Of a DNA stretch of 64,000 bases, positions 4,555-53,492 are shown piece after piece (position 1 is the first letter of the stretch; each line of letters opens with the position of its first letter). Source of the stretch: a virus (lineage: Duplodnaviria; Heunggongvirae; Uroviricota; Caudoviricetes); the IMG/VR virus record IMGVR_UViG_3300042890_002891, positions 194,831-258,830 of that record. The stretch is one strand, 5' to 3'. The notes below the pieces were generated by a model. The model saw nothing but the letters and a program-made list of their open reading frames with translations. It searched no databases and was not told the DNA's origin. The translations under genes and the position numbers were made by a program.

Positions 4555-5679
4555 ATGCATTGCAAATTTCTAGACCACGGGGTTGCTATTTCTTATGACC
4601 AAGTGGTGAAACCATGTTGTGTTTGGAAATATGATTCTTCATGGACAGCACAAAATCAACTTGGTTCGGTCAATCTTGACACATGGCACCAATCTGATCA
4701 GATTATCAGAATTAAAAATCAACTGGCACAAGATTCTTGGCCCAGCGGTTGTGAGCATTGCCATTCTATAGAAAAAACAGGCAGGGGTGATAGCACTCGT
4801 CTCAACGGTGCTCGGTCCTATGCAGAATACAGCGGCAACGATATTACTTTGGAAATTCGTCCAGGGGCTGTGTGTAACTTTGCTTGTCAAACTTGTTGGC
4901 CTGAGGCCAGCACTCGAGTGGCGCAGTTTCATCATCAGGCTGGAATAATAGATATCAAAGATGTCAACAGTCAAAGCATCAGCAATTTTGATTTTTTGTT
5001 ACCGTTCGCTGATCGAATCCGTAATGTGGTATTGCTAGGCGGTGAACCGTTTTATGACAAAAATTGTTTGAAATTTTTAGACTGGGCTGCTGAACATTTG
5101 TCCGCCAACATTACCATGTTCACAAATGGCAGCATGATTCGATGGGACTGGATCAAAAACTATCAACATCCTATCACTGTGGTGTTCAGCATTGACGCTG
5201 TGGGGAGACCTGCAGAGTACATACGCTATGGTACTGAATGGGATACAGTGCATCAGAACTTTCAAGAAATCCAAAAATACTCTCATGTGGACTTGCGAGT
5301 GAACATTACCTCCTCAGCATACAATTACATTTATATAGAAGAGGTGTTAGATATGCTGCTGGCCAAATGGCCCAGTGTGGTTTCTTTTGGTGTCCCGAGC
5401 GATGCTTACTTGGGAACCCTGGTAGTGCCAGATCAATATCGAGCAGAGATTGTTGCTAGTTTAACTCGATCTATTGAAAAAATTAAATCAACTGCTATTG
5501 AAATAGGACAACAACAAAATGCGGTGAATGCACTGCAATCAATAGTCGATGCATTGGCGACCAACAACTATGATCATGTGTTGCATCAAAAGTTTAAAAA
5601 GTTTGTGGAAGACATGGACCGTGTGAAGAAAATCAACATCCTGGACTATTGCAAATTTACAGCAGATATGTTAGCTTAA
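4555..5679 (+). CDS. radical SAM enzyme
   Basis: CNFACQTCW = CxxxCxxC 4Fe-4S/SAM cluster motif. A GGEPF motif (LLGGEPFYDKNC) is present. No C-terminal Cys-rich SPASM domain seen. Start is uncertain: the ORF opens at 4426 but that would overlap the divergent promoter. Confidence 0.65.
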   Translation: MHCKFLDHGVAISYDQVVKPCCVWKYDSSWTAQNQLGSVNLDTWHQSDQIIRIKNQLAQDSWPSGCEHCHSIEKTGRGDSTRLNGARSYAEYSGNDITLEIRPGAVCNFACQTCWPEASTRVAQFHHQAGIIDIKDVNSQSISNFDFLLPFADRIRNVVLLGGEPFYDKNCLKFLDWAAEHLSANITMFTNGSMIRWDWIKNYQHPITVVFSIDAVGRPAEYIRYGTEWDTVHQNFQEIQKYSHVDLRVNITSSAYNYIYIEEVLDMLLAKWPSVVSFGVPSDAYLGTLVVPDQYRAEIVASLTRSIEKIKSTAIEIGQQQNAVNALQSIVDALATNNYDHVLHQKFKKFVEDMDRVKKINILDYCKFTADMLA

Positions 5680-6813
5680 TAACTGCTGTAGATTTCTCAT
5701 CACATTCCCAGTATTTTTTTGATTGCTCAGTGCTGAGGTCAGTCCTGGAACATTTTGTTCGATTAGTGTGCGGCTAACACTGCTGTTCATGATTTGACCT
5801 TTTGCCAGTTCTAAAGGCAAGCGCAGGCACAACTTAAACAATTCAAGATCTCTCAGAGGAGTCCAGGTCAGGGTGTTTCCAATATGCCAGTGTTGCCAAT
5901 CATTCACAACGGTATTGCACACTGACCAATTAAAATCTTGATCTGTGGCAGGTTGATAGTTACACATCTGATCAGAAAATACTTTCACATGCTTTTGTAA
6001 CTTGAAATATTCTCGATGTAAGCAATCGGGATGTTCCATTAGCAATTGCAAAACACTAGAGCCATGATGCATCAGGTACTGATTGGCAGTGACAGGGCTG
6101 CGTAGCATAAATTCGTCGCCGGGTGCACCTGATGCCAACACACACGGTTCTTGCCAGTGATGTATTTGTCGATATCCCCAATTTTTGCAAATATCAGCAT
6201 GGTTTGCCAACCAAAATGCATCATGGTCACAGTGCTCTGCCCAGACCAATTCATGCGGAATCTGATATCGGCAAAGATAACTATACACCAGTAATGTATC
6301 TACGCCACCACTTAAAAACACACGTATTGGCTCTGTTACCTGTTGCGCATACTGTTGAATTTTTTTACACAGCAAGATATCAATATCATCAACAGTTGAA
6401 TAACCAGTATCGATGCTGCCAATCACATCAAACTTGTGTTCGGTCACTGCAAGATCTGCATGTACTGTGATCAAGCTGTCAGTCCAGGCAGTGCGGTCAG
6501 TTGCAATCAAATTGTTTATGCCGGCGTCATTGATATAAATTGGGAATCCGCGATAGCGATCAGACTGAATTGTTAGTGTGTCATTTACAACAACCAGCGC
6601 ACAAAAATTGCCAGTCAGATGCGGCGTGCTCTGAAACATTATCTGACCAAGTAGCGATTCTAAAGGTCCTGCGTCTGCGTAGCCTTTGTACAAAATTTGC
6701 ACAGGACCAATAGCAAACTGTTTCCATCCGGGATCGGTACTGATTGCAAAACTACTCAGTTGCCACTGGCATGGGTAATTTTCTTGTGGCTGCTGGCTGA
6801 TATGGAAAAACAT
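5671..6813 (-). CDS. asparagine synthetase-like PP-loop amidoligase lacking the N-terminal glutaminase Cys
   Basis: SGGVDT PP-loop motif at about residue 160 of 380, as in the AsnB C-domain or lasso cyclase. The N-terminus is MFFHIS, with no Cys2. Start overlaps the clpP stop as TAATG. Confidence 0.6.
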   Translation of the reverse strand: MFFHISQQPQENYPCQWQLSSFAISTDPGWKQFAIGPVQILYKGYADAGPLESLLGQIMFQSTPHLTGNFCALVVVNDTLTIQSDRYRGFPIYINDAGINNLIATDRTAWTDSLITVHADLAVTEHKFDVIGSIDTGYSTVDDIDILLCKKIQQYAQQVTEPIRVFLSGGVDTLLVYSYLCRYQIPHELVWAEHCDHDAFWLANHADICKNWGYRQIHHWQEPCVLASGAPGDEFMLRSPVTANQYLMHHGSSVLQLLMEHPDCLHREYFKLQKHVKVFSDQMCNYQPATDQDFNWSVCNTVVNDWQHWHIGNTLTWTPLRDLELFKLCLRLPLELAKGQIMNSSVSRTLIEQNVPGLTSALSNQKNTGNVMRNLQQLLS

Positions 6814-7403
6814 TATCTAGTGGTCAGTATCTTGTCAGCAAGTCCGTAGTCTACGGCTTCTTGCGCACTCATGAAATTGTCGCGCTCCATGTCTGCTGTG
6901 AATTCTTCAAATGTTTTGCCTGCTGAGTTATGTTTGACATAGATCTCAGTCAGCACCTGTTTCATCTTGAGAATTTCTGTGACCTGGATCAGCATGTCTG
7001 TGGCCTGTCCACGTGAGCCGCCCGAAGGTTGATGAATCATGTGACGAGCGTTGGGCAAGATAAATCGCTTGCCTTTAGCACCAGAACTAGCCAGCAATGA
7101 TCCCATTGAGCAGGCCTGTCCCATCACAATGGTCTGCACATCAGGCTTGATAAACTGCAGGGTATCATAGATGGCCATGCCTGCTGTGACGCTGCCGCCG
7201 GGTGAGTTGATATACAAACTGATATCTTTGTCAGGATTCTCACTTTCAAGAAACAACATTTGTGCCACAATCAAACTGGCACTATGTTCGTCTACATCTG
7301 AGTCCAGCATGATAATGCGTTCTCGAAGCAAGCGACTGTAGATGTCGTAGCTGCGTTCGCCTTTGCTTGTGGATTCAACAACAATTGGTACTAGATTTGG
7401 CAT
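6813..7403 (-). CDS. clpP: ATP-dependent Clp protease proteolytic subunit ClpP
   Basis: 196 aa with a canonical Ser/His/Asp triad context ([23 protein letters not shown]); RBS AAAGGAATATC. Confidence 0.85.
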
Positions 7404-8380
7404 GATATTCCTTTTTGGATTTTTTGTTTCTGACTATGAACATAATCAGTGAAGTGATGTTTATTGTATAGTATTTTTTCACTAAGAGCAAGAAATTTGG
7501 CTTGCCAGTACTCAGGTGTCTGGTCACACAACACTCCAAGGAATCGGTGCATGGCCGCTGGCTCAGCAAGGTTCAAGTCGGTGATATCCGCAAAGTCTGC
7601 AACATACGGTTCAAACCCTCGATCTGTTAGCCAGCGGGTGCCGCCATCAGGATCATACACCAAAAACGGTCTACATCCTACTATGGGTTTGTAGATTTTT
7701 TCACTTACAAATCCAGTCTGATTGATATCGAAAAACGTTTCAGTCACAATGTTTACCAGGTGTCGTTGCCAATTTTGCATGTGGCCCAGACTCACTATAT
7801 CATTGGGTACGCCGTAATGTGTGGCAGCAGCGTTGGGTGCAAGATTGTCCGGCTCGCAATCAGTTGGCAAAGATCTTACTGCTGAACCAGTGCCTCCCAT
7901 GCTTACTATACCACGGTCCAACAAGTTACTGGCTTCAAGTCTTTGATACAGCTTTTGTCTATGCCAGTGTGGCTTGCGATTCAAACACATGTAGGCTGTA
8001 TCAATCAGAGACGGATCCATTAGAATATCCAATGATGGTGGATTTAAAAATTCATCCACGAACACTGCACAAAAATCCACAGCATGTGGTCCTGCATAAT
8101 ATCCCACAGTCGATATTTCACATTCAAACTCACTATACCAATCAGCAGCAGGAATAGCCGCATCTAACATGGCAATCAGCACAATACAATCAACTGGATT
8201 GTTACGCAACCATTCCAGTACTTGTTCATGATATTGTTTGGTATACCATACAGAATTGATAACAACAGTTCTAGAAGAGTCGGCAGATATGTGCGTGAGC
8301 ATGCGATCAACTATGTGTGTTTCAAACTTCTTGAGTGGAAACTGCAAGCCCCAGCCGTTGTCAAATCTTTGAATAATCAT
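7391..8380 (-). CDS. glycosyltransferase-like protein, paralog A (TEK motif, fucosyltransferase/GT10-like)
   Basis: C-terminal [17 protein letters not shown] is shared with two other genes in the window. Confidence 0.5.
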
Positions 8381-9386
8381 GGTCTAGTATATTGGTTTGA
8401 TTGTTACAAATGTCCGCAAGATGTTGCCGATTGTATTGAGCTATCTCATGTGCAAAACTTAATATTCGTTTTTGTTCTGCACGGCCGCACTCCAGCAAGG
8501 TGCGCATACTTTGTTGCATAAGTCGCCAACGATCGGCACCTTCATACAGGTCATAACTTTCATCCCAGATGCTGTGATATGTTTGGAACCCTATGCTGCG
8601 CAATCTTGCTAGATAGTAACGTGGTGCATATACCAACATGGGTTTGGCAGCCATGATAGGACGTATGGTTTTTTCAGTAGGAAAGAATGTATTTCCTAAG
8701 GTGTAAGTTTCACACACTATCTCCACAGCAAAATTGTGATAGTGCTGCAACAAACTAGTATTGGTTTCTGCTGATGATGCAGGAGTAGCAAATTGATCTC
8801 TTACTGATTTGTTGTCCACACTGGTCACAATCCGTTGATCATACCAAGCAAACATCCGGGCCTGATCATACAGTGATAACCAGTCTGATATGTTTTCTAA
8901 ATCGTGAACATCACCTATCTCTCGTTTCCAAGGAAATGGTTGTATGTGATTCATCATGCTGGCAAAAAGACTAGTGCTATGTGCTTGATACAGAATAGCA
9001 GCTCTGCTGAGTGTAATTCTTCCAACAAACAATCCAAAAGGTTGTTGATATTCTAGTTGTTGTTCTAGTGTGGGTTCTGTGTGTTGCCAATAATCCTGAA
9101 CCATGAAGAAAAAATGACTTATCTTGCTGCATTTCACACGCTGGTATGGCACAAATTCTACAGGATTGCTCCATCCTATTAACTGCACAGTATCAGGAGT
9201 TTGTTTCCTAGCCATGAGCCAGGCGTTGATTGATTTGGTTATGCCCAGTGCCGACAAGCTAGGACCCTCTCCACGTAGGTCCAAGACCAGTGGTTCTCCA
9301 GGTGGGTGCTGATTAAGTTGTTGTTGAAATTGAGTAGGATTATTCCAGCAATCGCCGCTGAATTCTATTGCTATAGGTTCTGTCAT
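8361..9386 (-). CDS. glycosyltransferase-like protein, paralog B
   Basis: TEKTIRPIMAAKPMLVYAPRYYLARLRSIGFQTYHSIWDESYD aligns with paralogs A and C. Confidence 0.5.
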   Translation of the reverse strand: MTEPIAIEFSGDCWNNPTQFQQQLNQHPPGEPLVLDLRGEGPSLSALGITKSINAWLMARKQTPDTVQLIGWSNPVEFVPYQRVKCSKISHFFFMVQDYWQHTEPTLEQQLEYQQPFGLFVGRITLSRAAILYQAHSTSLFASMMNHIQPFPWKREIGDVHDLENISDWLSLYDQARMFAWYDQRIVTSVDNKSVRDQFATPASSAETNTSLLQHYHNFAVEIVCETYTLGNTFFPTEKTIRPIMAAKPMLVYAPRYYLARLRSIGFQTYHSIWDESYDLYEGADRWRLMQQSMRTLLECGRAEQKRILSFAHEIAQYNRQHLADICNNQTNILDHDYSKI

Positions 9387-9416
9387 TCCAATACTTATGG
9401 TGTCACTAAATACACC

Positions 9417-10961
9417 ATGAGAGATTTAATCAACGTACTTGACAGCATAATAACTGAGGTGACCATCAGTAAACCCAAATATGGACCTGGCACTCAATTT
9501 TCTGTTTCCACAGGGTCAGAAGCTGGAAAAAAGTTACTGACATTGTTGCAGCAACAAGGATTTGATGCTACTCCGCCATTGACCAGGCAAGACGACACAG
9601 AATTGAGCGAAAAAGATATCTTAAATCTCCCCACAGTTACATATGGAAAAGGCGGCGACGGTTATATTTTTTCCAATAATGCTGGACAGTCTGTTTTGAT
9701 TGTTGGCAGTTCTAGTACCATTGGGGCAGCGTTTAATGTGTATACTGGAGCCACTGCCGACGACGATGTTGGGAAAATTGCCAATCGCGGCGAAACAGCC
9801 GAAGGTATTCTGGGCGCTGCTATGTTTGCTAAATTCACCAAACGTGAATCTGACGAAGATATCGGCACAGTGACCGCTCAGGACATCGGCAATGTGCTTG
9901 ACAGTTTAAAGCAAACCGGTGAGGATCAATATCAAGTGGAAGTGGAAGATTTTGATAATGAACATGCGGATGTGATTTCGTTTGTGCTGAGACTTAAATC
10001 CGGGCCGTATCAGGATCTCATGGATCCTGCCAAGCGACCGCTGTTGGCCAGTGAATTCTCCAGTGCCGCTGCTTATGTCAACAGTTCGGACGCTGAACGA
10101 TACAGCAAGTATTTTTATATCAATGGCAGGTCAGATCAGATCGTGATCATGGCCGATGGCGTCACAGGTGAAACAGAACAAAAGACCGATGTGTGGGTGT
10201 TTGTCACTGATGAAAATGGCCAGCCACGTAAACTTAGACTCAATACCAGTCTCAAGGTAGGTGGTATTAAACAGTTTGGACAAGTGGGTGGCGACAGTGC
10301 AGAAACCCAACAGATCTTGTGGAATTATTTTGGTGTTGATGCAAGTTCTGCGTTGGCCAAATTTACCAAGGCAATGAAATCCAATTCACCAACAGCAACA
10401 AGAGATGCATTCAAACAAATATATCAATATGCTGCTACCGAACTAGACAACAAATTGAAAAACGCCAGACCTGAAGATGAAGCCAACATAATTGATGCCA
10501 TTGCCACTGGTATCACACACTTTGCTACACTGGGCGATCCCAATGTTGAACTGGTGGACTTCAGCGATGGTGGATTCAAGATTTTGAGATTCAACAAGCT
10601 GGTTGAAAAATTAAAGAATACAGATCTTGAAGCCACTTACGTTGATAAAAAAACTTGGCCAGAAGTGGTCATTCATGAACGCGATAACCCTAATAATAAA
10701 CTGCTGACCATCAGGATGAAAGTAGAGAACAAACCCAAGGGCGGTATCTATGTTCGCACTTACATTGAAAAGGGTCCGCTGTTGGAAAAACTCACCGAAT
10801 ACCGAAAAGCCAGTTGGGACAATGCTCCAGCTGCTACTGGTGCCGAAGATCTAGATGCAGTTACCGGCACACCAAGACTATCGGGTCCTGGTGCACGAGC
10901 AGCAAAGACAAATCGCGAACCCAGAATGGATCGTGCCACCCTAGGGCGCGAGCGTCGTTAA
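9417..10961 (+). CDS. acidic 514 aa hypothetical protein ending in LGRERR
   Basis: Start set at the first ATG after the divergent gene start (the ORF track opens at 9306). The C-terminal ...ATLGRERR is shared with 48717..49601. Confidence 0.55.
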   Translation: MRDLINVLDSIITEVTISKPKYGPGTQFSVSTGSEAGKKLLTLLQQQGFDATPPLTRQDDTELSEKDILNLPTVTYGKGGDGYIFSNNAGQSVLIVGSSSTIGAAFNVYTGATADDDVGKIANRGETAEGILGAAMFAKFTKRESDEDIGTVTAQDIGNVLDSLKQTGEDQYQVEVEDFDNEHADVISFVLRLKSGPYQDLMDPAKRPLLASEFSSAAAYVNSSDAERYSKYFYINGRSDQIVIMADGVTGETEQKTDVWVFVTDENGQPRKLRLNTSLKVGGIKQFGQVGGDSAETQQILWNYFGVDASSALAKFTKAMKSNSPTATRDAFKQIYQYAATELDNKLKNARPEDEANIIDAIATGITHFATLGDPNVELVDFSDGGFKILRFNKLVEKLKNTDLEATYVDKKTWPEVVIHERDNPNNKLLTIRMKVENKPKGGIYVRTYIEKGPLLEKLTEYRKASWDNAPAATGAEDLDAVTGTPRLSGPGARAAKTNREPRMDRATLGRERR

Positions 10962-11530
10962 CGTCCCAGTGTGGATATTGCATCGCAGATGTGCAGTTCC
11001 AGAGCCTGAGTAGCATCAAGCCAAACATCATGTGGTGGCAACAGCTTGGCCCGAACAGTTTCATCATCAAGCCCGGTACAGTCCCGGTAGTGCTGTATCA
11101 TGCGCTTTTGTGTAAGCTCAAATTCACGCATGGTAGCAAACAATTCATGCACCTTGCCATCGCTGCCCCAGCTGAACTGGTGACTCAGGATACTGGTGTT
11201 GGGAGTAAGGATTCTACGTCCCGGGGAACCTGCTAGAAATATCAAGAGTCCTGCACTGGCAATCTGTCCCAGTCCCACTGTTTTGACCGCAATAGCACTG
11301 CTGCGCATGACATCAATTAGTGCAAAGGCAGCACTCATGTCTCCACCTTCTGAGCAGATCATCAGCAGGAGTTCTTTGCGCTTTTTCTTGACCACATAGT
11401 TTTCATGCAGAATCCACTCTATCACTGGTTTGATACTGTCATGGTCTATTTCACCCATGAGTACCAGCATGCCTGAGTCGGCCAGCCGTTGGGTGTGTGA
11501 TTGATCTAGATTTTCAGTTTCTGTGGCCAT
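10958..11530 (-). CDS. second ClpP-like protease subunit (ClpP2)
   Basis: 190 aa; GQIASAG (Ser), ILSHQFS (His) and PPHDVWLDA (Asp) align with the clpP triad; divergent from ClpP1. Confidence 0.65.
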   Translation of the reverse strand: MATETENLDQSHTQRLADSGMLVLMGEIDHDSIKPVIEWILHENYVVKKKRKELLLMICSEGGDMSAAFALIDVMRSSAIAVKTVGLGQIASAGLLIFLAGSPGRRILTPNTSILSHQFSWGSDGKVHELFATMREFELTQKRMIQHYRDCTGLDDETVRAKLLPPHDVWLDATQALELHICDAISTLGR

Positions 11531-11544
11531 AAATTTGTAGTGGA

Positions 11545-11570
11545 AAAAGCAGCCCGAGTGGACTGCTTTT
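11545..11570 (-). terminator. rho-independent terminator after 11594..12166
   Basis: AAAAGCAG-10 nt loop-CTGCTTTT followed by a T-tract. Confidence 0.45.
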
Positions 11571-11593
11571 ATTTATGCGTATATTATCGCAGA

Positions 11594-14482: not shown

Positions 14483-14914
14483 ATGACATTAAACAATGCC
14501 CTTCCTGAAATTCAACACTGTGCATTGCCCGAATGTAATAAACCTTTTTCTAATTGGCGGCGTAACTGCTGCTGTACAAGTCATCAGGCTAGGTATTCTG
14601 CAAAAATGAGATGGGGGACACTTAATGAGCCCGACCGATCAAAAGAAGAAATTGTTGCATACCATCGCCAATGGTCAATTGAAAAACAAAAAAGAACTAA
14701 AAACGCTATGCCAGCTTGGGCAAATAAAACAGCAATTCGATCAATATATGAAGAAGCGGCAGGATTAACTATTTCAACTGGTGTAAAACACGAAGTTGAT
14801 CACATTGTGCCATTGACTAATAAATTAGTGTGCGGACTGCATGTAGAACATAATTTACGAGTAACAACTTTTACTGAAAATCGACAAAAATCAAATAAGT
14901 TTGTTATACAATGA
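14483..14914 (+). CDS. HNH homing endonuclease
   Basis: HEVDHIVPL...CGLHVEHNLRVTTFTENRQKSN HNH motif plus an N-terminal Cys cluster; one of the few plus-strand genes. Confidence 0.75.
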   Translation: MTLNNALPEIQHCALPECNKPFSNWRRNCCCTSHQARYSAKMRWGTLNEPDRSKEEIVAYHRQWSIEKQKRTKNAMPAWANKTAIRSIYEEAAGLTISTGVKHEVDHIVPLTNKLVCGLHVEHNLRVTTFTENRQKSNKFVIQ

Positions 14915-14943
14915 ACGTTGGTAAATATTTCATAGGAGAACTT

Positions 14944-15147
14944 ATGTTTACAAAAATCAAACAATTCTTTCTGGGCAAACCTGCTCCAGAAGCCCAGGCA
15001 CCGTACAAGATAGAAGCACCATGGACACACGCCGAAGTTGCACCAGTCACTGCGCCAATAGTTGCTGAACCAGCGGCTGCAAAGAAAGCTGCTCCCAAGC
15101 CCAAAAAGCCAGCTGCAAAAAAGCCTGCTGCCAAAAAGCCAGTCTAA
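14944..15147 (+). CDS. small histone H1-like protein with KPAAKK repeats (68 aa)
   Basis: Start at the ATG after AGGAGAACTT; C-terminal AAKKAAPKPKKPAAKKPAAKKPV. Confidence 0.5.
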   Translation: MFTKIKQFFLGKPAPEAQAPYKIEAPWTHAEVAPVTAPIVAEPAAAKKAAPKPKKPAAKKPAAKKPV

Positions 15148-15164
15148 TTATCAACTGAACTTTT

Positions 15165-15186
15165 GATAACCCCGCAAGGGGTTATC
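15165..15186. terminator. stem-loop GATAACCCC-GCAA-GGGGTTATC between convergent genes (no clear U-tract)
   Basis: Perfect 9 bp stem with a GCAA tetraloop. Confidence 0.4.
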
Positions 15187-16083
15187 TCACGATTGTACCG
15201 TGGGTGTGTTGATCTTGTCCCACTTGTCCACCATGGCATTTTTGAGTGCAACAGTGGTTGGGAATTTGTTCTTACGCATGTAGTTGTTGATCTTGACTGC
15301 TGTGGGATAGTCTGAACTGTTGGGCTTGCGAGCATTGCCCATGTCCACTCCCAGTCCGCTATCCTCATCAGGATATCTTGATCCATAGTACACCAGATCA
15401 TGTCGTAGTTTTTCTGCACGTGGAGACAATTCTGACTTGTTGTTTTTGTAGATCAGTTCCAGCCACGGTTCCAGATACATAGTTGGTGGCCTGCTGGGTG
15501 TAACACCCCTGGGTTGTGCGCCCTTGAGTACGGCCGCTGCTGAGGCTGGGCTCACCGTCTTGCGTGTGTCTTGCAGACGCCAGGCAGTTTCGTCTGTGTA
15601 AAAATACGCAGGGATACCACGCTTCTTTGCAGCAATCAACACTGTTCTGGCTTCAGGGCTGCGATATTCACTTTGTTCTTTCAGCAGCACATGTACCGCT
15701 GTCACACCTTCAATTGAGATTTCGGGCTCACGACTAAACACACGGTCTTCGCTTTCGCGACTTCTAGCACCGTCGCTGTGCAACCACGCACGTTCCCAGT
15801 AGTCCATAGGTCGAGTCTTGTAGTTGCGATTCAACCAGGTGCCGTCGATCACAAACATCACACCGCCTGTGCCAACATATCTATGATAGTCGCCCACTCG
15901 ACTGCGTGTGGTACTTAAAAAATAAAGATATCCCGGGGGAGCATACATTTCTTCACTCTTGTTGCCGGTCACGCTGCTGAGTTGAAATACACCGCTGGTG
16001 AGTATTTTGGCTGCTGCACCTATACCTGCATAATGGTACACCACTGCGGTGGCTGCTTCTGCTAGGAATTCTTGTGCTCTCAT
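15187..16083 (-). CDS. putative capsid-targeted internal protein (298 aa) with T4 CTS-like N-terminus MRAQEFLAEA
   Basis: The N-terminal decapeptide resembles the T4 IP capsid targeting sequence MKTYQEFIAEA, including an LxE cleavage context; the rest is novel. Confidence 0.5.
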   Translation of the reverse strand: MRAQEFLAEAATAVVYHYAGIGAAAKILTSGVFQLSSVTGNKSEEMYAPPGYLYFLSTTRSRVGDYHRYVGTGGVMFVIDGTWLNRNYKTRPMDYWERAWLHSDGARSRESEDRVFSREPEISIEGVTAVHVLLKEQSEYRSPEARTVLIAAKKRGIPAYFYTDETAWRLQDTRKTVSPASAAAVLKGAQPRGVTPSRPPTMYLEPWLELIYKNNKSELSPRAEKLRHDLVYYGSRYPDEDSGLGVDMGNARKPNSSDYPTAVKINNYMRKNKFPTTVALKNAMVDKWDKINTPTVQS

Positions 16084-16724
16084 GTGTACACCAAACTGTC
16101 TATGCGTTTGTAACGAATATTAAACGCATTCATCAACAATTCAACTTCTCGTAAACATTGATCTCTAGCACCGCCTACCAGGTAAGCACCACTAAATCGT
16201 TTTAATTGTGCCACACTAGTCCAGTTTACTGTCAGAGGTTCATCATTTAATTCTTCCATAGCACCCTGGATCAAGGACTGCTGTGGCGTGCGTTTGTTGA
16301 ATGGAGGAAACTGCAATTCTCTGCTGTCGCTTTTGTGTTGTTGATATAACTCACGTATGGTAGCAATAATAGTAGCCGGTTCTATACCAGCATCCATCCA
16401 TCCACGGAAGTATCCATAGCCTTTGTCCACTATTTGAAAGCGGCTCCAGTTAATGGGATTAACATCAGGGTTGTTGTCGTACCAGTCTGGATCAATGGTA
16501 TCTTCCCAGTATGTTTGAATCGCAGCCACAGTATCACCACTGAGTCCTTGATCTTCTGCATTGACAAACATCAACACAGGGCCAGTTTGCTTGTTGACAA
16601 AGTTTATAATTTGCGGAAAAACAGCACTTTCATCCCCATCATGCATGCCTGAATACTCGGGTTGCACATCCACTACAATAACTGGATGTGCGGTACCTTC
16701 ATTAAGAAATTCGTTTGCTCTCAT
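16080..16724 (-). CDS. putative capsid-targeted internal protein (214 aa) with N-terminus MRANEFLNEG
   Basis: Start at the ATG (the ORF track upstream start is TTG); shares the first 9 residues with the adjacent gene; ATGA overlap with the downstream gene. Confidence 0.5.
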   Translation of the reverse strand: MRANEFLNEGTAHPVIVVDVQPEYSGMHDGDESAVFPQIINFVNKQTGPVLMFVNAEDQGLSGDTVAAIQTYWEDTIDPDWYDNNPDVNPINWSRFQIVDKGYGYFRGWMDAGIEPATIIATIRELYQQHKSDSRELQFPPFNKRTPQQSLIQGAMEELNDEPLTVNWTSVAQLKRFSGAYLVGGARDQCLREVELLMNAFNIRYKRIDSLVYT

Positions 16725-16764: not shown

Positions 16765-17475
16765 TCAACTCCAGTACTTGCTGTTGTCTAGGCTGTCCCA
16801 GTATTGTTTGTTGTTGCGATTCACAAAGTTTTTCACAAGGTACTTGGCCATGCCCATGTAGCCCATCTTTTTGAATCTACGACTATCCTGTCCAAGGTGG
16901 TGTCGGATGATTCTAAACTTTCGAGGGCTGTATTTTCTGGACAAAAAGTAATCTTCGCTGGTGGAAAAGTTTTCAGGGAAACCGCCATATTCTTCAAACC
17001 GATCTCTACGTGTGAGCATGAACGCTCCAACTGCAAAAGGAGAGAAATATTTCAGCGCATGATTTATGGTGTTGAACACAACAAATCCTGCTTTTGCTCT
17101 AAGGTCTTGATCATAACACTTGATGTTCAGACCCACAAGATCCAGGTTCATAGATTCAATTTTATCCACAGCATCACGGATCACATCGTATTTGAAAAAA
17201 CGCACATCAGCATCAATGAACAAGATGTATGGGGTAGTGGCTAGTCGTGCTCCGTTGTTCTTGGCCATAGACACAGGACCGCCGTCGATTATTTCAACAT
17301 TCAATTCCCAACTGTTGTCCTGTATAACTTGTCTAGTTGTATCAGTTGAACAGTCAGCAATGATAACTCTAGTATCACCTATGTTCTGTGCTCGCAAAGC
17401 ATCTAGCAAATGATGAATATATGCCTCTTCATTCTTGCAAGGCACTACTATAGTGATTTTGTCACTGATTTTCAT
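16765..17475 (-). CDS. family 2 glycosyltransferase (GT-A fold)
   Basis: IVVPCKNEE N-terminal Rossmann-like start and a DAD (DxD) motif. Confidence 0.7.
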   Translation of the reverse strand: MKISDKITIVVPCKNEEAYIHHLLDALRAQNIGDTRVIIADCSTDTTRQVIQDNSWELNVEIIDGGPVSMAKNNGARLATTPYILFIDADVRFFKYDVIRDAVDKIESMNLDLVGLNIKCYDQDLRAKAGFVVFNTINHALKYFSPFAVGAFMLTRRDRFEEYGGFPENFSTSEDYFLSRKYSPRKFRIIRHHLGQDSRRFKKMGYMGMAKYLVKNFVNRNNKQYWDSLDNSKYWS

Positions 17476-18226
17476 GGTCTGTCTCCCGGGTCCAAGTAAC
17501 TATTTCCCATGCACCATCATGATGTTCTACCAGGGCTGTGCATGATTCAACCCAGTCGCCATCATTCATGTATGTAACTCCGTTGATCTCTTTGATCTCT
17601 GCGTGGTGTATGTGTCCACAGATGACTCCATCAAAGCCACGCTTCTTGCAGTAGCCTGCTAGATTTTCTTCAAACTTGAACATGAAGTCTACTGCTTTTT
17701 TGACCTTGTGCTTAAGAAACTTGCTAAGGCTAAAGTACCCAAAACCCATACGGCGACGTATCCAATTGAACTTGCTGTTGACAGAAAGAATGATATCATA
17801 TGCTCGATCTCCAAGAAATGCTATCCAGGGCGCCAGTCTGGTGATGCCATCAAACAAGTCACCATGCACCACCAGATAATGATTGCCATCTGCACCTATG
17901 TGTTCTATCTGATTGTGTATTTCAACATGTCCGAAACTAAATCCATATGGTATCATGGGCCTTAGAAATTCGTCATGGTTGCCGGCCACATACACAACTC
18001 TAGTACCACGCTTGGCATGACCTAGCACTCTGCGTACCACGTTGGTATGGCTCTGTTTCCAACGCCACTTGTTTTGTTGTATGCGCCAGGCATCTATTAT
18101 GTCTCCCACAAGATACAGGGTCTCGCAGGTGTTGTTTTTTAGAAAGTTGTTGAGTTTCTCTGCTTGGCAGTCTCTGGTACCAAGATGTACATCTGAGATA
18201 AAGATACTGCGATAAGTTTTCTGCAT
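17462..18226 (-). CDS. calcineurin-like metallophosphoesterase, LpxH-like
   Basis: DVHLG, GDIIDAW, GNHDEF, GHIH motifs; C-terminal GDWVESCTALV resembles UDP-2,3-diacylglucosamine hydrolase. Confidence 0.6.
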   Translation of the reverse strand: MQKTYRSIFISDVHLGTRDCQAEKLNNFLKNNTCETLYLVGDIIDAWRIQQNKWRWKQSHTNVVRRVLGHAKRGTRVVYVAGNHDEFLRPMIPYGFSFGHVEIHNQIEHIGADGNHYLVVHGDLFDGITRLAPWIAFLGDRAYDIILSVNSKFNWIRRRMGFGYFSLSKFLKHKVKKAVDFMFKFEENLAGYCKKRGFDGVICGHIHHAEIKEINGVTYMNDGDWVESCTALVEHHDGAWEIVTWTRETDHENQ

Positions 18227-18274
18227 GGGGTATTTAAGCAGAAGTTCGCCCCAATAATGTTACAGTTGTGTTAC

Positions 18275-18433
18275 ACTATATCTGTACCAGAGTCCATCGG
18301 GCAGTAAATGCCTTGCCAGCAGCCTTGTGTTTCAGAATTTTTCGATATTCTTCTTGACGAAGTTGTTGAATCTTCTTGTCATCGTGGTCAACGCAGGCTC
18401 GGTATAATTTTGTGATCAATTTTGATTGTTTCA
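18275..18433 (-). CDS. small basic protein (52 aa), not in the ORF track
   Basis: [52 protein letters not shown]; RBS AAGGATGGG; promoter-like TTGGCA-16-TATAAA upstream. Confidence 0.3.
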
Positions 18434-18484
18434 TAAGTTGCCCATCCTTGAAAACTATTTATACCGTTAGTGAAATAATTGCCA

Positions 18485-18509
18485 ATAAAAAAGAGCCCTT
18501 GGGGCCCTT
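18485..18509 (-). terminator. rho-independent terminator after pstS
   Basis: Minus strand AAGGGCCC-CAA-GGGCTCTT followed by TTTTATT. Confidence 0.5.
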
Positions 18510-18554
18510 AGTGCTGGTTACGAGTTCCAGCCTCCGCTCAATCTTGCGGTCGGT

Positions 18555-19550
18555 TTAGTGTAGTGCCAACCGTTTCCAGTCTGCACGAATCTTGTTCTTC
18601 ACTGCTAAAGGCAATGCCACATAGTCTAGGTCATCTGCTGCTCGATCTCCACTGGCAAATGCCCAGTCAAAGAAAGCAATAGCAGTTTTGGATTTAGCAG
18701 CATCTTCGGGTTTCAAATACACTAGGATAAATGTAGCACCTGAGATGGGCCATGCTTCTTTGCCTGCTTGATTGGTTAGAATCTGAAAGTATGTTCGGTT
18801 CCAGTCAGCATTTGCGGCAGCTGCCTTGAATGATTCTTCTGTGGGTGCCACCCAGGTGCCAGCAGCGTTCTGTACATTGACCCAGTTCATCTTGGTTTGT
18901 TTTACATAAGCAAATTCAACATAGCCCAGTGTTCCTGGAAGTTGTCTAACCATGGCAGCAACACCTTCGTTGCCTTTGCCGCCTGCTCCAACTTTCCAGT
19001 TGACTGCTGTGCCTTCACCAATGGTGTCTTTGAATTCTTTAGATACCTTGCTGAGATAGTTGGTCCAGATAAATGTAGTTCCTGATCCATCTGCTCTGCG
19101 AACCACAGTGATTGCTTGGTCAGGTAATGCTAATGAGGGGTTTAGTGCCCGGATAGCAGCGTCATCCCAGCGAGTAATTTTGCCTAGAAAGATATCAGCA
19201 AGCAATGTGCCTGTGAGTTTCATTTGTCCAGGTTCGATGCCCTTGACGTTGATCACAGGAACCACGCCGCCAATTGCTGTGGGGAACTGGAATAGTCCCA
19301 GATCTTTTAGTCGATCATCTGTGAGTGGCATATCACTTGCACCAAACGTGACTGTCTTGGCTTCAATCTGTTTGATACCTGCACCTGAGCCAACTGACTG
19401 ATAGTTGATTTTGATGTTGGTCACGCGGTTGTAGTCACTAGCCCACTTTGAATACAACGGAGCCGGAAATGTTGCACCGGCTCCTGTAACTTCTTGTGCT
19501 GTTGCAGAAACTGCAACAACTGATAATAGAATAGCTAATAATTTTTTCAT
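18555..19550 (-). CDS. pstS: phosphate ABC transporter substrate-binding protein PstS
   Basis: Signal peptide. GAGATFPAPLY, SGTTF and the overall sequence match proteobacterial PstS (about 330 aa). RBS AAGGAGTCAAG. Confidence 0.9.
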   Translation of the reverse strand: MKKLLAILLSVVAVSATAQEVTGAGATFPAPLYSKWASDYNRVTNIKINYQSVGSGAGIKQIEAKTVTFGASDMPLTDDRLKDLGLFQFPTAIGGVVPVINVKGIEPGQMKLTGTLLADIFLGKITRWDDAAIRALNPSLALPDQAITVVRRADGSGTTFIWTNYLSKVSKEFKDTIGEGTAVNWKVGAGGKGNEGVAAMVRQLPGTLGYVEFAYVKQTKMNWVNVQNAAGTWVAPTEESFKAAAANADWNRTYFQILTNQAGKEAWPISGATFILVYLKPEDAAKSKTAIAFFDWAFASGDRAADDLDYVALPLAVKNKIRADWKRLALH

Positions 19551-27737: not shown

Positions 27738-28949
27738 TTAGCTGTTTACAACCCGGAGTTCCTCGGGTTCTGCCACCTGATCCGTGTCAATTGACAGCAC
27801 AGCAATGCCTTGCTGGCGGTATTGTGCAAGATGAAACATGTGCGGCAACAGCACACGTTCTAGTTCGCTGTGCAGACCACGTGCACCAGTTTGATTGACC
27901 AAGGTGCGCTCCGCAATCTCATCCAGTGCCGCCACAGTAAACGTCAAGTCCACGCCATCTTCAGAAAATAGCCAACGATACTGATCCACATAGTTATTCT
28001 TGATCTCTGTGAGAATTCTAATCAGGTCCGCTTTGCTGAGTTGTTTCAAACTGACCCAGTTGGGAAAACGTCCAACAAATTCCGGAATCATGCCAAACTT
28101 CACCAGGTCATCTGGTGTGGTCATGTCCAGATCGGTATCAATAGATGTTTTTGCAACCTTGGCGTTAAAGCCAATGGAGGTTCCTTGCACACGATTTTTC
28201 ACTATGGTATCTAGCCCCACAAATGCGCCACCAGCAATAAACAAAATGTTGCGAGTGTCAATTTCAATCATGTCACCACCAGGATGCTTTCTGCCACCAC
28301 CTGCTGCTGGAATACGACACACAGTGCCTTCTACCATTTTTAACAGGGCCTGTTGTACACCTTCGCCTGACACATCTCTAGTGATCGACGAGCTTTCGCC
28401 CTTGCGAGCAATTTTGTCAATCTCATCCACAAACACAATACCCTGCTGTGTCTTGGCCACATCGTTGCCTGATGCAGCATACAATCTAGTGATTAGACTT
28501 TCCACATCGTCACCCACATATCCTGCTTCAGTGATACTTGTGGCATCAGCAATGGCAAATGGCACATCAAGATAACGTGCCACTGACTTGGCCAACAAAG
28601 TTTTGCCTGAGCCAGTGGGTCCTAACATCAAGATGTTGGCTTTGTCCATTTCTGGATCAGTTGTGGTCTTGCTGATGCGTTTGTAATGATTCACAATGGC
28701 CACACTGATCATGATCTTGGCAGCGTCCTGACCAATCACATACTGATCCAGATAGTTCTTCAGGATCATTGGATCTAGTTTGGCTGATGGTGGTTCGGGT
28801 GGCACAACTGGTTCGTCAGTTGACAACAGTCCCTGACAAAAATCCACGCACTCGTTGCAGATGCCTGCATACTCGCCAACAATAAGTTTACGCACGTCAT
28901 CTTTATTTTTGCCACAGAAGCTGCATGAGGAATGGGTTTCTTTGATCAT
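27738..28949 (-). CDS. clpX: ATP-dependent Clp protease ATP-binding subunit ClpX
   Basis: N-terminal C4 zinc finger CSFCGK...CNECVDFC, Walker [12 protein letters not shown]+ motifs. Start placed after the upstream stop (TAAAATAATG). Confidence 0.9.
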
Positions 28950-28953
28950 TATT

Positions 28954-30366
28954 TTATTCTGGAAGTTGTTGTATGCGTTGTTCGATTTGATCACGTTCAC
29001 TGTCACTCAAAAGCTCAGGATCATACAATCCTTTTTCAATTTGAACAATCAAGTGATCTATGTATGCTATGTCGTAAGTATACTGGTCTTTTATAGAATT
29101 GTCAACTTTGATCCAGCCGGAGCCGTTGAATTTATACAACACATTGGGAATCGTTGTGGTCAACACATAGCTGTCACCTTTTACAGCAGTGTCGGGCAGG
29201 TGTGTTCCAAATCCAGATGTAGGTTCATGTGATGGCAAAAACTTTAGCCAAGGCAGTTCTTCTATCTGCCCAGAGTCAAATAATTTTCGTTGATGTTTGA
29301 GTGTGTCTGTGGGATTCTCGGCCTTCCATTGTGTCATGGCTGCTTTGAGTTCAGGACTTTCTTCGTCGGAGTCATCATCGTCGGGCAGTGTTGTTTCTGC
29401 TGCTTGTGGCACTGGCTGTGGGTCGGGCTCAAACATCCAACCGGCTGGATGCGGGTTCTCAGGAAATAGTTCTTGCCGGCTCACAAGTTCGCCAGTGGGC
29501 AAGTCTTGTTGTGCTCTAGCACGTAACTGTTCCAGTACTTCTGGATCAATGGGACCATCATCAGGTTCATATGCTGGTGGCTCAGGTTCAAGCACTCGAC
29601 TGGTGCGACCTTCACGTGCCCACTTGAGACTTTCTGTAGATGCCAACAGCATCATGATAGCTAGTGGATCAAATACACAAACCAACAACATGATCACCCA
29701 GCGTACTGCACGTTCCAGAACATTGGCATCAGGATTGTCACCGTAGATCAAGGCTGCAATGTACTTGATTGGACCTACTTCAGCTTCGATCTTGCGAAAT
29801 TCTGCTCGGAGTGGTGCTGCTTCTTCGTTCAGCTTGGCCACGGTTTTCTGCTCAGTGTCAATTTCGGCTATGAGACGAGCACGTTCTTTATTTTGAGATC
29901 TGCGGATCTGAACAGCTTTCTCAGCACCTTTCTCATCGGCACTGCGACCCATGACCTGGTCCACAGCTTCATCCATCTGTTTAAGTGCCCGACGGTTGGC
30001 GTCAATGTTGTCTTTGGATGTTCGAATTTTTTCATCAAAGATCAAAACCTTGGCCTGACTGTCGCCACTCACAAGACTCTGATCACTGTGTGCTTTTGAC
30101 AAGAAACCAAAGATGCCCATGCTGGTGATCAACATTAGCATGATCACAGCAGACACCAGGTATATTTTCATCAACCATCTGGCTCGTGGCCAGTACTCGT
30201 GCAGCCATATGGTCACAACCACCTTGGCCAATTCCAGGATGGATCCCATGATCATGATGGGTATCACTGCGGCTGCAAATATAGCTGCCAGGCCGGCAAT
30301 GCTGTAGTAGGCAGCAATAACGCTGAGACTCAGAGCCACGGCTAGAGTTATAAGACTAAGAAACAT
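28954..30366 (-). CDS. multi-pass membrane protein with a coiled-coil and an acidic Pro-rich C-terminal domain (470 aa)
   Basis: 4 N-terminal TM helices, a central coiled coil, one more TM, then [12 protein letters not shown]...DDDDSDEE. Confidence 0.5.
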
Positions 30367-51277: not shown

Positions 51278-53227
51278 TTAAGGGCTTGGTGGGTTGTTTC
51301 GAGCTTTGTTTCTGGCTGTGAAATCAAAGCGATTTACTGCTTTACCATAGCCTGCAGGGGTTGCAAACACCCATCCTTCGTTGCCGGGCACTTGTGCATC
51401 CAGCTTGGTCAACAGGTCCAGTTTCAGATCATGCAGCAATTCAAACAACACAAAGGCAGCAGCCAAGGCTTGTTCATTGCTGGTAGGGCTGCGCAGATAT
51501 TGCAGAATGTTGTTGTACTTTTGCGGTGTTTGAGTCTGTTGCAGCCAGGCTAGAAATCCCGGCACAAGATCACTAAAATTGCCAGTGTATGCTGCATGGT
51601 TTGGATCCACACGTTTGTTGATGTAGTCTATTGCCAGCTTGGCCAAGTCAGTTATTTTCATGGCACGTAGTTCAGCAGGATTAAACAAGGTGTTCATGAC
51701 TGCTCGGTTTTGGCGCAACAGTGACTTGATTTGTTTGACAATGGGATCTGCTGTTTCCACAGGCTTAGCATATATGGGTTCGATCAACAACAGGCCGGGC
51801 ACAGGATTAAACTTGACTCTGCTGAGTGGCTGCTTGGCAGCGCCTGCATCTTCGTACATGGTATGCACAGCAACACCAACTTGAGATCCTGCAATGTCCT
51901 TGCCCAGTTTGCTGGCAACTGGAATTCTGTATTCCACAGTGTTTGGTTTGAATTCCACCAGACCTGCGTTTATTTCCCAGGGCTTTTCGGGACTGTACAA
52001 CAGGTCGCCCTTGACATAGCCACGAAAGTTTTCTGGAGTAGCAGCTTCCAAATATGGCCAGATACTCTGATACACTGGCAACAGTGTCTGCACTCGGGTG
52101 GCCTGATTGCCTTTGGCAGCAGCATTGGCATCACGCTGTGCCATGTGGTCAGCCACAGCATCGGTACTGGTAAACAGGCCATCATATCCAACTGCACCGA
52201 ATCCTGCATCATCTGTGAGCACAAATTCTCCGGTTTCGGGCTTGCGACCAAATACCACAGCAGGCTTTCCGTCCCATTTGACTGACCCTTGTTTGGGCTG
52301 TTTGTAAAAAGAATCAGCAATGGCCAGCGCACGGTCAACACCCGCGGTTCCTTGACGGAACACATAGTCTTCCAGATGCTCAATACCCTTGGCTTGGCCG
52401 CCCACCGCAGTGGGCTCTTGTTCGTATATCTGATACAAGGGCTTGGCTTCGATCAATTGCTGCATGCCTTGATTTACTATTCTGTCCCGTAGTCTGGCCA
52501 AGAAGTTAACATCATTTTCTTTTACAGGCATTTCGGGTTCTTTAAGGCCTTCACGGGCTAGATATTCACGAAAGTCTTTGAGCTTGGCGTCACGGTCGGG
52601 GTCCTTTGCTAGAGCAGCATAAATTGATTCTACATTCTTTAGTGCAGCTCGGTCCTGAGTGCCGCCCAGCAATACCGCAGACACATAGTCTGGATCTTGA
52701 CCGCCTCGGACCAGTTCATTTGTGGTGCGGCTGATCATGCCATTTGCGCCCACCTTGAGTCCGGCTTGTTTGGCCAAGCTGCTCAGCAGCACATTGCGAT
52801 TCATGCCCTTGTAGGCTGATCCTTCAGATCCACCATAATAGAATGTGCCCCAATCCAGGTTGGGAAAGAACATAAAATCAGTCTGTACAAATCCTTTTTC
52901 GGGATCTCCGCCGATGGGAGTTCTAAGATGCACTTCGCCTGATTTACGAACCCATTCACGAGGGTCGAGTCCTTGACTGGTGGCCCATTGTGTTAGCCCG
53001 GCTGCCACCTGTTCTTTGGTTGTTTCTCCAAGATCCACAGCTAGATCCAGGTCACCAGATGTGGCCTTGCGGCCAGTGCTGCCCAACCAACGATCTTCAG
53101 GAAATTCAATACCTGTAACTTGTTCCACCCAGGCAATGGTAGCGGCAACGTCAGCTTGATTGATGCGTTGTGTCAGTGGTTGGCCTTGGGGGTCTTTGAA
53201 TACATTGCCGCCTTCGAAAATTTTCAT
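51278..53227 (-). CDS. nucleotidyltransferase-superfamily protein with a KxDG motif (putative RNA ligase / second ligase)
   Basis: SVKWDGKPAVVF covalent-nucleotidyl-transferase motif I at about residue 330 of 649. Start at the ATG after ACAGGATCAAG. Confidence 0.45.
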   Translation of the reverse strand: MKIFEGGNVFKDPQGQPLTQRINQADVAATIAWVEQVTGIEFPEDRWLGSTGRKATSGDLDLAVDLGETTKEQVAAGLTQWATSQGLDPREWVRKSGEVHLRTPIGGDPEKGFVQTDFMFFPNLDWGTFYYGGSEGSAYKGMNRNVLLSSLAKQAGLKVGANGMISRTTNELVRGGQDPDYVSAVLLGGTQDRAALKNVESIYAALAKDPDRDAKLKDFREYLAREGLKEPEMPVKENDVNFLARLRDRIVNQGMQQLIEAKPLYQIYEQEPTAVGGQAKGIEHLEDYVFRQGTAGVDRALAIADSFYKQPKQGSVKWDGKPAVVFGRKPETGEFVLTDDAGFGAVGYDGLFTSTDAVADHMAQRDANAAAKGNQATRVQTLLPVYQSIWPYLEAATPENFRGYVKGDLLYSPEKPWEINAGLVEFKPNTVEYRIPVASKLGKDIAGSQVGVAVHTMYEDAGAAKQPLSRVKFNPVPGLLLIEPIYAKPVETADPIVKQIKSLLRQNRAVMNTLFNPAELRAMKITDLAKLAIDYINKRVDPNHAAYTGNFSDLVPGFLAWLQQTQTPQKYNNILQYLRSPTSNEQALAAAFVLFELLHDLKLDLLTKLDAQVPGNEGWVFATPAGYGKAVNRFDFTARNKARNNPPSP

Positions 53228-53243
53228 CTTGATCCTGTTGAGT

Positions 53244-53492
53244 TTATGTGCTTGTTGGAGTTTTTCTAACGGTTCTAGCAAAACGTCCTGCGTCCCGGGT
53301 ACGGATAGAATTCAGCAGTTTGCGTGTGAGATTTTCTGCTTGCTCGGGTGTGTATGTAGCATCAATCTGCTCCAGCAAGTTGATAGCACTGGCTATGACA
53401 TTTGATGCCCGACTCTCAATCACTAGATCGCGTTCACGCTCGATATACATGGAATCTAATTCTTCTAACAAACTACGGGTGCGTTTTTGCAT
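53244..53492 (-). CDS. hypothetical protein (82 aa)
   Basis: ORF. Confidence 0.4.
   Translation of the reverse strand: MQKRTRSLLEELDSMYIERERDLVIESRASNVIASAINLLEQIDATYTPEQAENLTRKLLNSIRTRDAGRFARTVRKTPTST

Follow-up and report, generated by a model that had tools for sequence, protein, structure and literature searches.

The internal proteins (Ips) of phage T4 carry a capsid-targeting sequence (CTS; Mullaney & Black 1996, Repoila et al. 1994). In this T4 tag, residues 4 and 7 act in targeting, while residues 8 and 10 direct cutting by the protease gp21 (PMC9026906). The Ips of T-even phages share only this leader and inhibit GmrSD restriction enzymes, which is the case for all three in T4 (PMC12373910). 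In the T4 genome, ipII and ipIII start with MKTYQEFIAEA, ipI with MKTFKEFTST, alt with MELITELFDE and gp24 with MAKINELLRES. We describe here a comparable tag on two overlapping genes, A and B, of a Caudoviricetes virus (IMG/VR record IMGVR_UViG_3300042890_002891). The window, meaning the whole stretch that was analyzed, covers 64,000 nucleotides (positions 194,831 to 258,830 of that record). The first nine residues of A and B, of the form M-R-A-x-E-F-[LIV]-x-E, would serve, as in T4, as a transferable peptide for capsid targeting and processing, and the two proteins that carry it are probably enzymes that would be packaged and probably injected. The features of the locus are as follows:

15187..16083, minus strand: gene A, 298 amino acids (aa), with the tag, a domain of ADP-ribosyltransferase (ART) fold and a C-terminal helical domain
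16080..16724, minus strand: gene B, 214 aa, with the tag and an isochorismatase/nicotinamidase-like cysteine hydrolase
16057..16083, minus strand: tag of A, MRAQEFLAE, with the candidate protease site L7-x-E9
16698..16724, minus strand: tag of B, MRANEFLNE, with the candidate protease site L7-x-E9
15679..16050, minus strand: ART-fold domain of A, about residues 12-135, assigned from the model and conservation
15190..15678, minus strand: C-terminal, mostly helical domain of A, residues 136-298, from the predicted model
16080..16083, minus strand: ATGA, overlap of the B stop with the A start

The translation of A begins MRAQEFLAEA and that of B begins MRANEFLNEG. The first-pass annotation had described two adjacent genes with a common start that are otherwise unrelated, and this was confirmed by BLASTP of A against B, where the alignment was restricted to residues 1-10 (7/10 identical) and no other significant match was obtained. 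The similarity also goes beyond chance, since the DNA pattern ATGAGRGCNNNNGARTTYNTNNNNGAR matched twice in the window (16057-16083 and 16698-16724), compared to 0.00 matches expected from 100 shuffles, and the tag is kept across the homologues of both proteins. When the motif was relaxed to M[RKQ]xx[ED][FILVM][FILVM]x[ED], six-frame matches in the window were located solely at the starts of A and B; the small protein at 1852-2079 (MSKTPYEIRLE), which had been proposed as a third example, does not fit the tag motif. The start of B is the ATG at 16724, and the same start is found in a 100%-identical database protein (P0121), present on contigs of up to 261 kb. A TAAATA-like sequence lies just upstream of this ATG, too near the start for a late promoter. 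The ATGA overlap between the B stop and the A start suggests translational coupling, and the order of B followed by A is kept in the related contigs L095 and L126-L131. In one of these (L129), A is apparently split into two shorter open reading frames (ORFs) of 55 and 253 aa, and a radical-SAM gene is inserted between the glycosyltransferase gene and B.

The conservation of the tag was quantified on the best 120 of 444 (A) and the best 120 of 817 (B) database homologues. A start of the form M[RK][AILVST]x[ED][FILVM][FILVM]xE was present in 91/120 A and 89/120 B homologues, the latter count rising to 106/120 once miscalled starts were allowed, and about 75% of the 240 proteins were tagged. Most of the remaining homologues carry close variants of the tag, e.g., MRLQELLEA or MLVRDLFEA. 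The tag is a modular element: it still begins at residue 1 despite inserted domains (P0009, P0038, P0059, P0099, P0100, P0129, P0180, P0188 and P0190), as illustrated by the architecture of P0190 (tag-Polbeta nucleotidyltransferase-B) and by that of the A homologue of L095 (tag-ART-LysM-tail lysozyme). Moreover, many A homologues have a variable linker directly after the tag. One B homologue of 229 aa (P0162) has two tandem tags, MRITEILIEY...PAPES MRASEFIIEG..., which could reflect either a fused upstream mini-ORF or a genuine duplication of the tag.

The tag is not restricted to these two families. Scanning IMG/VR with a DNA pattern of the tag yielded at least 120 stretches (1.05 Mb), in which at least 201 ORFs begin with the tag, often 2-5 in a row, and every occurrence was at an ORF start. 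The mature parts of these proteins fall into at least 44 BLAST clusters, and the tag-bearing uncultured contigs are colinear with the jumbo phage PA5oct. The tag ends abruptly: positions 1-3, 5-7 and 9 carry 2.8-4.3 bits of information, the variable positions 4 and 8 about 1 bit each, and every position from 10 onward less than 0.7 bit. Phe, [ILV] and the final Glu are the conserved residues of the tag in the clade of the window; the core of the motif is F6-[ILV]7-x-E9, in which the Phe and the hydrophobic residue match T4 positions 7 and 8, and Tyr4 of T4 has no counterpart. Glu9 was present in 198/198 ORFs, a set chosen by a motif that required Glu9. Pfam searches on 82 tagged proteins detected Glyco_hydro_19, LysM, Phage_lysozyme2, ADPrib_exo_Tox, ART-PolyVal and Kinase-PolyVal, in addition to GNAT, NT5C, ParB_N, DUF6267 and others. 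Going by these matches, the cargo families are of types typical of virion-delivered effectors. The isoelectric points of the tagged proteins were mixed (median of 8.1), with no T4-like basic internal-protein signature. A tblastn search with B, its T4-like relative P0306 and an abundant 125-aa tagged family detected no isolate in 50,697 phage records. Three tagged proteins have a twin-arginine (Tat) export signal (RRGFLGALGAGAMAA...AQA) directly behind the tag:

L013:2992-3612, plus strand: tag followed by a twin-arginine signal
L062:3858-4493, minus strand: tag followed by a twin-arginine signal
L080:1-382, minus strand: tag followed by a twin-arginine signal

If the tag is removed in the head, these proteins, once injected, would show the Tat signal at their new N terminus, which would suggest delivery to the host periplasm via the cytoplasm. 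DUF6267 also occurs in the window, where the C-terminal half of an approximately 650-aa protein (51278-53281, minus strand) matches this family (E 3e-28) and includes a ligase-like KxDG sequence (SVKWDGKP). The DUF6267 domain of related contigs is a separate protein of 366 aa that starts with the tag (MRAFEFLTEA..GREFNHLEDLVF). The junction of the two halves in the window protein (...GMQQLIEAKP...) may represent either the remnant of a tag or an L-I-E protease site inside the protein.

In other lineages, the same cargo is found behind different tags. The contig JBINOJ010001111.1 (NCBI GCA_043955495.1; here L219) is T4-like (T4_neck-protein; gp4 homologue 37% identical) and carries, at 5427-11573, an array of genes starting with MK[TS]YKEY[LIV]xE, close to the T4 tag MKTYQEFIAE. 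Homologues of A (E 4e-24) and of B (E 1e-31) lie in this array, separated by about 1 kb and two intervening genes. The array also encodes an ART-PolyVal-like protein, DUF5662 and DUF3990, with two ADP-ribosyltransferase-like proteins in all. The T4-like B relative P0306 is encoded on the same contig. The run constitutes an internal-protein array that is unannotated and made up of enzymes, not of small inhibitors. The A homologue of Vibrio phage 6E35.1a (Straboviridae) begins with MKKFNEFAKELEE. In Alishewanella phage Slicko01, eight adjacent, partly unrelated genes start with MKIxxLYESxLxE, the A homologue having MKIxxLYESxLEE. In the huge phage LR756508, the A homologue starts with MQKLQDLLFEA and its neighbors with MKLQNILYES and MVKFKSLLFES. 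The three A-homologue paralogues of Lu11 start with MKIQLAVAG, and the A homologue of Dickeya JA11 has no tag. The B family comprises 579 representatives at 50% identity; distant B relatives start with MKTYKEYLTE, MKTFSEFLIE or MVTLKQYIAEA, and some are untagged and begin at the fold itself (MNKLIVVDIQP). The occurrence of the same cargo with lineage-specific tags, together with that of the same tag on many cargos, is what a targeting signal predicts.

We then consider the two proteins behind the tag. They had initially been described as having no recognizable domains. A, B and a 75-aa ORF gave no Pfam or PHROGs match. Despite these blanks, the description does not hold: structure prediction gave confident AlphaFold models for both, in which an ART fold was found for A and an isochorismatase fold for B. 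A is basic (isoelectric point of 9.4). On the basis of its model, it is closest in fold to the nucleic-acid-directed branch of Tpt1/KptA and DarT, and no structural match was reported outside the ART-fold domain. Nine residues are invariant in the A family (H17, Y54, S57, T59, R60, E110, E112, D113 and R114) and lie on core strands of the model, whereas residues 1-7 have a predicted local distance difference test (pLDDT) score below 50. Compared to the RNA 2'-phosphotransferase Tpt1/KptA and the DNA ADP-ribosyltransferase DarT, A is only 9-17% identical, has no Pfam match and no match in a profile search against PDB sequences, and possesses an extra helical domain of 160 residues; its catalytic residues are putative.

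B is acidic. D19 (after strand 1), K101 (after strand 96-100) and C190 (at a helix N terminus) are invariant in 39 sequences, and the modeled topology fits a putative Asp-Lys-Cys triad. Residues 1-3 have a pLDDT below 50, and residues 5-9 are modeled as a short helix before the first strand. In contrast to isochorismatase-like hydrolases, including the nicotinamidase PncA, B has no Pfam match to PF00857 and carries a large insertion (residues about 60-95 and 130-165). The profile search against PDB sequences gave a chance match only, and no counterpart of the His/Asp set that binds the metal in true nicotinamidases was recognized in B. Nicotinamide is the leaving group of ADP-ribosyl transfer, and a coupled pair of transferase and nicotinamidase is thus a reasonable inference: B, if it is a nicotinamidase, would remove the nicotinamide freed by A from NAD+.

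The link to head assembly is indirect and comes from relatives. No isolate is close to the window in DNA, as blastn of the region gave only a 78-bp match to Pelagibacter phage Mosig. The window encodes ribonucleotide reductase (RNR) subunits, a DnaB-like helicase, an ATP-dependent ligase, ClpX and two ClpP proteins, as well as PstS, a metallophosphoesterase and a family 2 (GT2) glycosyltransferase, and 23 of its ORFs match the Pseudomonas jumbo phage PA5oct in conserved order (PA5oct 140.7-181 kb). PA5oct is T4-related, with a T4-like portal, prohead protease and major head protein (PMC7318152). In eleven tag loci, some on contigs of 293-340 kb, homologues of T4 gp18 and gp4 lie within a few kilobases of tagged pairs. 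The gene order is sheath, tube, tube, gp4-like, ..., tagged pair, ..., TerL, which is colinear with the tail and neck genes of PA5oct (120-130 kb). A tblastn and phmmer search for the T4 head genes (gp20-24, 67 and 68) in the 1.05 Mb that surround tagged genes turned up homologues of gp18 and gp4 alone. The link to the protease was thus made through synteny with PA5oct.

The head module of PA5oct has the order portal, gp333 (73 aa), gp332, protease, gp330, major capsid protein. The protease belongs to Peptidase_S77 (E 5e-24) and is 38% identical to T4 gp21; this S77 protease was found in PA5oct and in 80 uncultured relatives, and none lies within the 64-kb window. The protein encoded between portal and protease, gp333, starts with MKINDIITEG and carries a flag for detection in PA5oct virions by electrospray ionization tandem mass spectrometry (ESI-MS/MS). 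A motif scan of 220 kb of PA5oct (50-75 kb and 220-287 kb lie outside it) detected the motif at three coding sequence starts, namely, those of gp333, gp246 and gp213, and gp246 (V/MKIKDILVES) also carries the ESI-MS/MS flag. The 80 uncultured PA5oct-like head modules keep the PA5oct order. Their gp333 homologues start with MRARDFL[FT]EG, MRLDEFYSPE and similar sequences, and N termini of the form ...LLES or ...LFES are present on the scaffold-like and major head proteins of these modules. In L139-L190, major head proteins start with MSKVLLESRW, MAKLFESNW or MKELFENW and scaffold-like proteins with M..A.K.LLES. If S77 cuts at these L-x-E sites, the propeptide of the major head protein would be about 6-8 residues long, compared to 65 in T4 gp23.

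Taken with these observations, the reading that we favor is a T4-type route into the head. The tag would dock the newly made protein onto the prohead core of a T4-related jumbo phage, a gp21-type (Peptidase_S77) prohead protease would remove it after Glu9 at the [LIV]-x-E site, and mature A and B, the products of a cotranslated pair, would be retained in the head and reach the host together with the DNA. The proposal of the first-pass annotation, that a T4-type CTS marks candidate packaged and injected proteins, was supported by the in silico tests that were run. The data show directly that the tag is modular, lineage-specific and sharply bounded, that the two folds are present in the models, and that the clade possesses the protease and a tagged protein of the head module. 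Since there are no head genes in the window, we infer packaging, cleavage after Glu9 and injection, and we treat the substrates and the functional link between A and B in the same way.

Several observations weigh against this T4-type route. No head module lies within the 64-kb window, and the evidence for packaging comes from relatives and not from A and B themselves. A and B are located among metabolic genes (GT2, metallophosphoesterase and PstS) and not among structural ones; this objection is weak, because the ip and alt genes of T4 are also scattered. The tag is one residue shorter than that of T4 and has no Tyr at the T4 targeting position. The third tag-bearing coding sequence of PA5oct, gp213, has no mass spectrometry (MS) flag, and RNR, thymidylate synthase and further enzymes appear on the PA5oct MS list as well, which makes the flag weak evidence. 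The contigs with many tags and those with the protease are linked solely by synteny with PA5oct and not in one genome, and the ClpX and two ClpP proteins of the window leave room for a proteolysis tag. Finally, fold and conservation are the sole basis for the putative enzyme activities and for the D-K-C and H/Y/E assignments.

The best-surviving alternative, which we nevertheless consider unlikely, accepts that the tag targets the prohead and holds that A and B are core or assembly components which act or are destroyed there, rather than delivered effectors. T4 gp22, gp67 and gp68 indeed have similar N termini and are degraded in the head, and the gp333 family of PA5oct occupies the position of gp67/gp68. 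However, A and B look like enzymes with conserved catalytic-type residues, and NAD+-dependent chemistry makes little sense in a capsid. Among their relatives, fusions occur to lysozyme, kinase, nucleotidyltransferase and GNAT modules that are typical of delivered effectors, and T4 Alt, an ADP-ribosyltransferase that is packaged and then injected, provides a direct precedent.

The Clp genes suggest a second alternative, in which the tag would be a degradation or timing signal for a phage Clp system and the tagged effectors would act in the cell before removal by ClpXP. The window encodes a ClpX with zinc finger (27738-29006, minus strand) and two ClpP homologues (6813-7403 and 10958-11530, both on the minus strand; Pfam E 1e-80 and 1e-27). 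PA5oct encodes ClpX, ClpS and ClpA, together with a ClpP-like protein whose annotation reads "head maturation protease." With Clp genes in both phages, a phage-borne Clp system appears to be a trait that the window shares with PA5oct. N-terminal recognition motifs for ClpX are known, but the tag does not appear to fit the ClpX N-motif of Met, a basic residue and three hydrophobic ones. Moreover, degradation would leave unexplained the close match to the T4 CTS, the occurrence of an almost identical T4 tag on these cargo families in the T4-like contig, the tagged gene between portal and prohead protease, the MS detection in PA5oct virions, and the presence of tagged genes inside late structural clusters. 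We judge this explanation somewhat less probable still than a role in the core.

Conservation at the level of DNA was also considered, as the first codons are strongly conserved (ATG AGA GCN), the arrays of tagged genes look shuffled, and mobile regulatory cassettes are known in T4-type genomes. The common start could in that case be a nucleic acid feature, such as a translation-initiation enhancer or a recombination cassette for gene shuffling. However, the preference for AGA was imposed by the search pattern itself. The third codon positions that the pattern left free vary (GCA/GCC/GCT/GCG, GAA/GAG and TTT/TTC, with ATT/ATC/ATA/TTA/CTA/GTN at position 7), which indicates that selection acts on the peptide. 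At the protein level, the substitutions are conservative (R/K, A/I, F/L/I and I/L/V), and the architecture of the peptide is maintained in lineages whose DNA differs considerably. We consider a nucleic acid feature very improbable. Lastly, although only about 10 residues are involved, a chance resemblance or an ordinary structural element of each fold is refuted by the window counts, by conservation across hundreds of homologues with two different folds, by inserted modules that separate the tag from the domains, by the low model confidence of the first residues (1-7 in A and 1-3 in B) and by the absence of the tag from some distant relatives that share these folds.

Should the tag function as it does in T4, sequence alone would suffice to catalogue the proteins that uncultured jumbo phages inject, and foreign proteins could be directed into jumbo-phage heads with a signal that already exists. 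Injected proteins are the first to act in an infection, and anti-defense and host-takeover functions are likely to be found among them. We tentatively extend the interpretation further: MRAxEF[ILV]xE may label, like an address, a very large and shuffled arsenal of effectors that the uncultured PA5oct-related clade packages in the head and injects, with A and B as an injected NAD+ module. Such an arsenal, for which we would give slightly less than an even chance, would comprise, in the sample alone, at least 44 families, among them ADP-ribosyltransferases, kinases, acetyltransferases, ligase-like enzymes, cell-wall hydrolases and Tat-signal proteins. The module of A and B could then conceivably couple a nucleic-acid-directed ADP-ribosyltransferase to a nicotinamidase. 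The tagged pair of ADP-ribosyltransferase-like and nicotinamidase-like proteins points to a candidate NAD+ conflict at DNA entry; a survey of viral NAD+ systems mentions no coupling of an ADP-ribosyltransferase with a nicotinamidase (PMC9503650).

Regarding the surroundings of the pair, genes for the GT2 glycosyltransferase, an LpxH-like metallophosphoesterase and the PstS phosphate-binding protein lie directly upstream of B (16765-19550, minus strand), and GT2 and LpxH-like metallophosphoesterase genes also adjoin the RNR genes in PA5oct. Two plus-strand genes converge on A, namely, a 78-aa ORF (14911-15147) and an HNH/endonuclease VII-like gene (phrog_26577; 14483-14914). The 78-aa ORF ends in an Ala/Pro/Lys repeat (AAAKKAAPKPKKPAAKKPAAKKPV), which resembles the DNA-binding tails of histone-like or AlgP-type proteins. 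Between the convergent genes, at 15166-15185, lies an 8-bp GC-rich hairpin, ATAACCCC-GCAA-GGGGTTAT. Elsewhere in the window, an 82-aa ORF (53244-53492, minus strand) is 46% identical to PA5oct gp259 ("virion structural protein"); both directly follow the DnaB helicase gene in their phages, which makes them a possible virion protein in the replication module.

Among known systems, the polyvalent proteins (Iyer et al. 2017; Iyer et al. 2022, PMC9503650) use the same shuffled ART-PolyVal, Kinase-PolyVal, lysozyme and GNAT modules and are predicted to be packaged in the virion and injected, and the multidomain relatives of A and B look like scaled-down forms of them. However, packaging of polyvalent proteins was deduced from fusion to MuF or portal or from huge size, whereas here many short proteins each have their own tag of 9 residues. 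Paralogues among the ejection proteins of phiKZ and SPN3US have conserved N termini in common, and the N-terminal propeptides of ejection proteins are cut after Glu by a T4-related prohead protease; these propeptides are mostly 80-130 residues long with the motif [S/A/G]-x-E, in contrast to the 9 residues found here, as in T4. T4 Alt is also an enzyme of the ART superfamily, and its N-terminal propeptide (MELITELFDE) is removed by gp21 before delivery with the DNA. Alt nevertheless belongs to the R-S-E Alt/VIP2 branch and modifies proteins, whereas Tpt1/KptA and DarT act on an RNA 2'-phosphate or single-stranded DNA; A has His instead of Arg in strand 1 and no sequence similarity to Alt.

The closest likeness is to IpI, IpII and IpIII of T4. 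In both cases, a short N-terminal peptide is carried by otherwise unrelated, nonessential proteins encoded in small arrays, with an E-F-[IL]-x-E core and an [LI]-x-E site at its end (MKTYQEFIAEA in T4 and MRAQEFLAEA in A). In both cases, too, the phage is T4-related, and relatives of the window phage encode a gp21-type protease. The differences are that the tag has 9 residues and not 10 and lacks Tyr4, that the cargo consists of putative enzymes of 23-33 kDa and larger and not of small GmrSD-binding inhibitors, and that the tag is found on at least 44 clusters in a clade of uncultured PA5oct-related jumbo phages. Compared to the T4 system, this would be a known principle in a new clade, with a cargo that is new and far more numerous.

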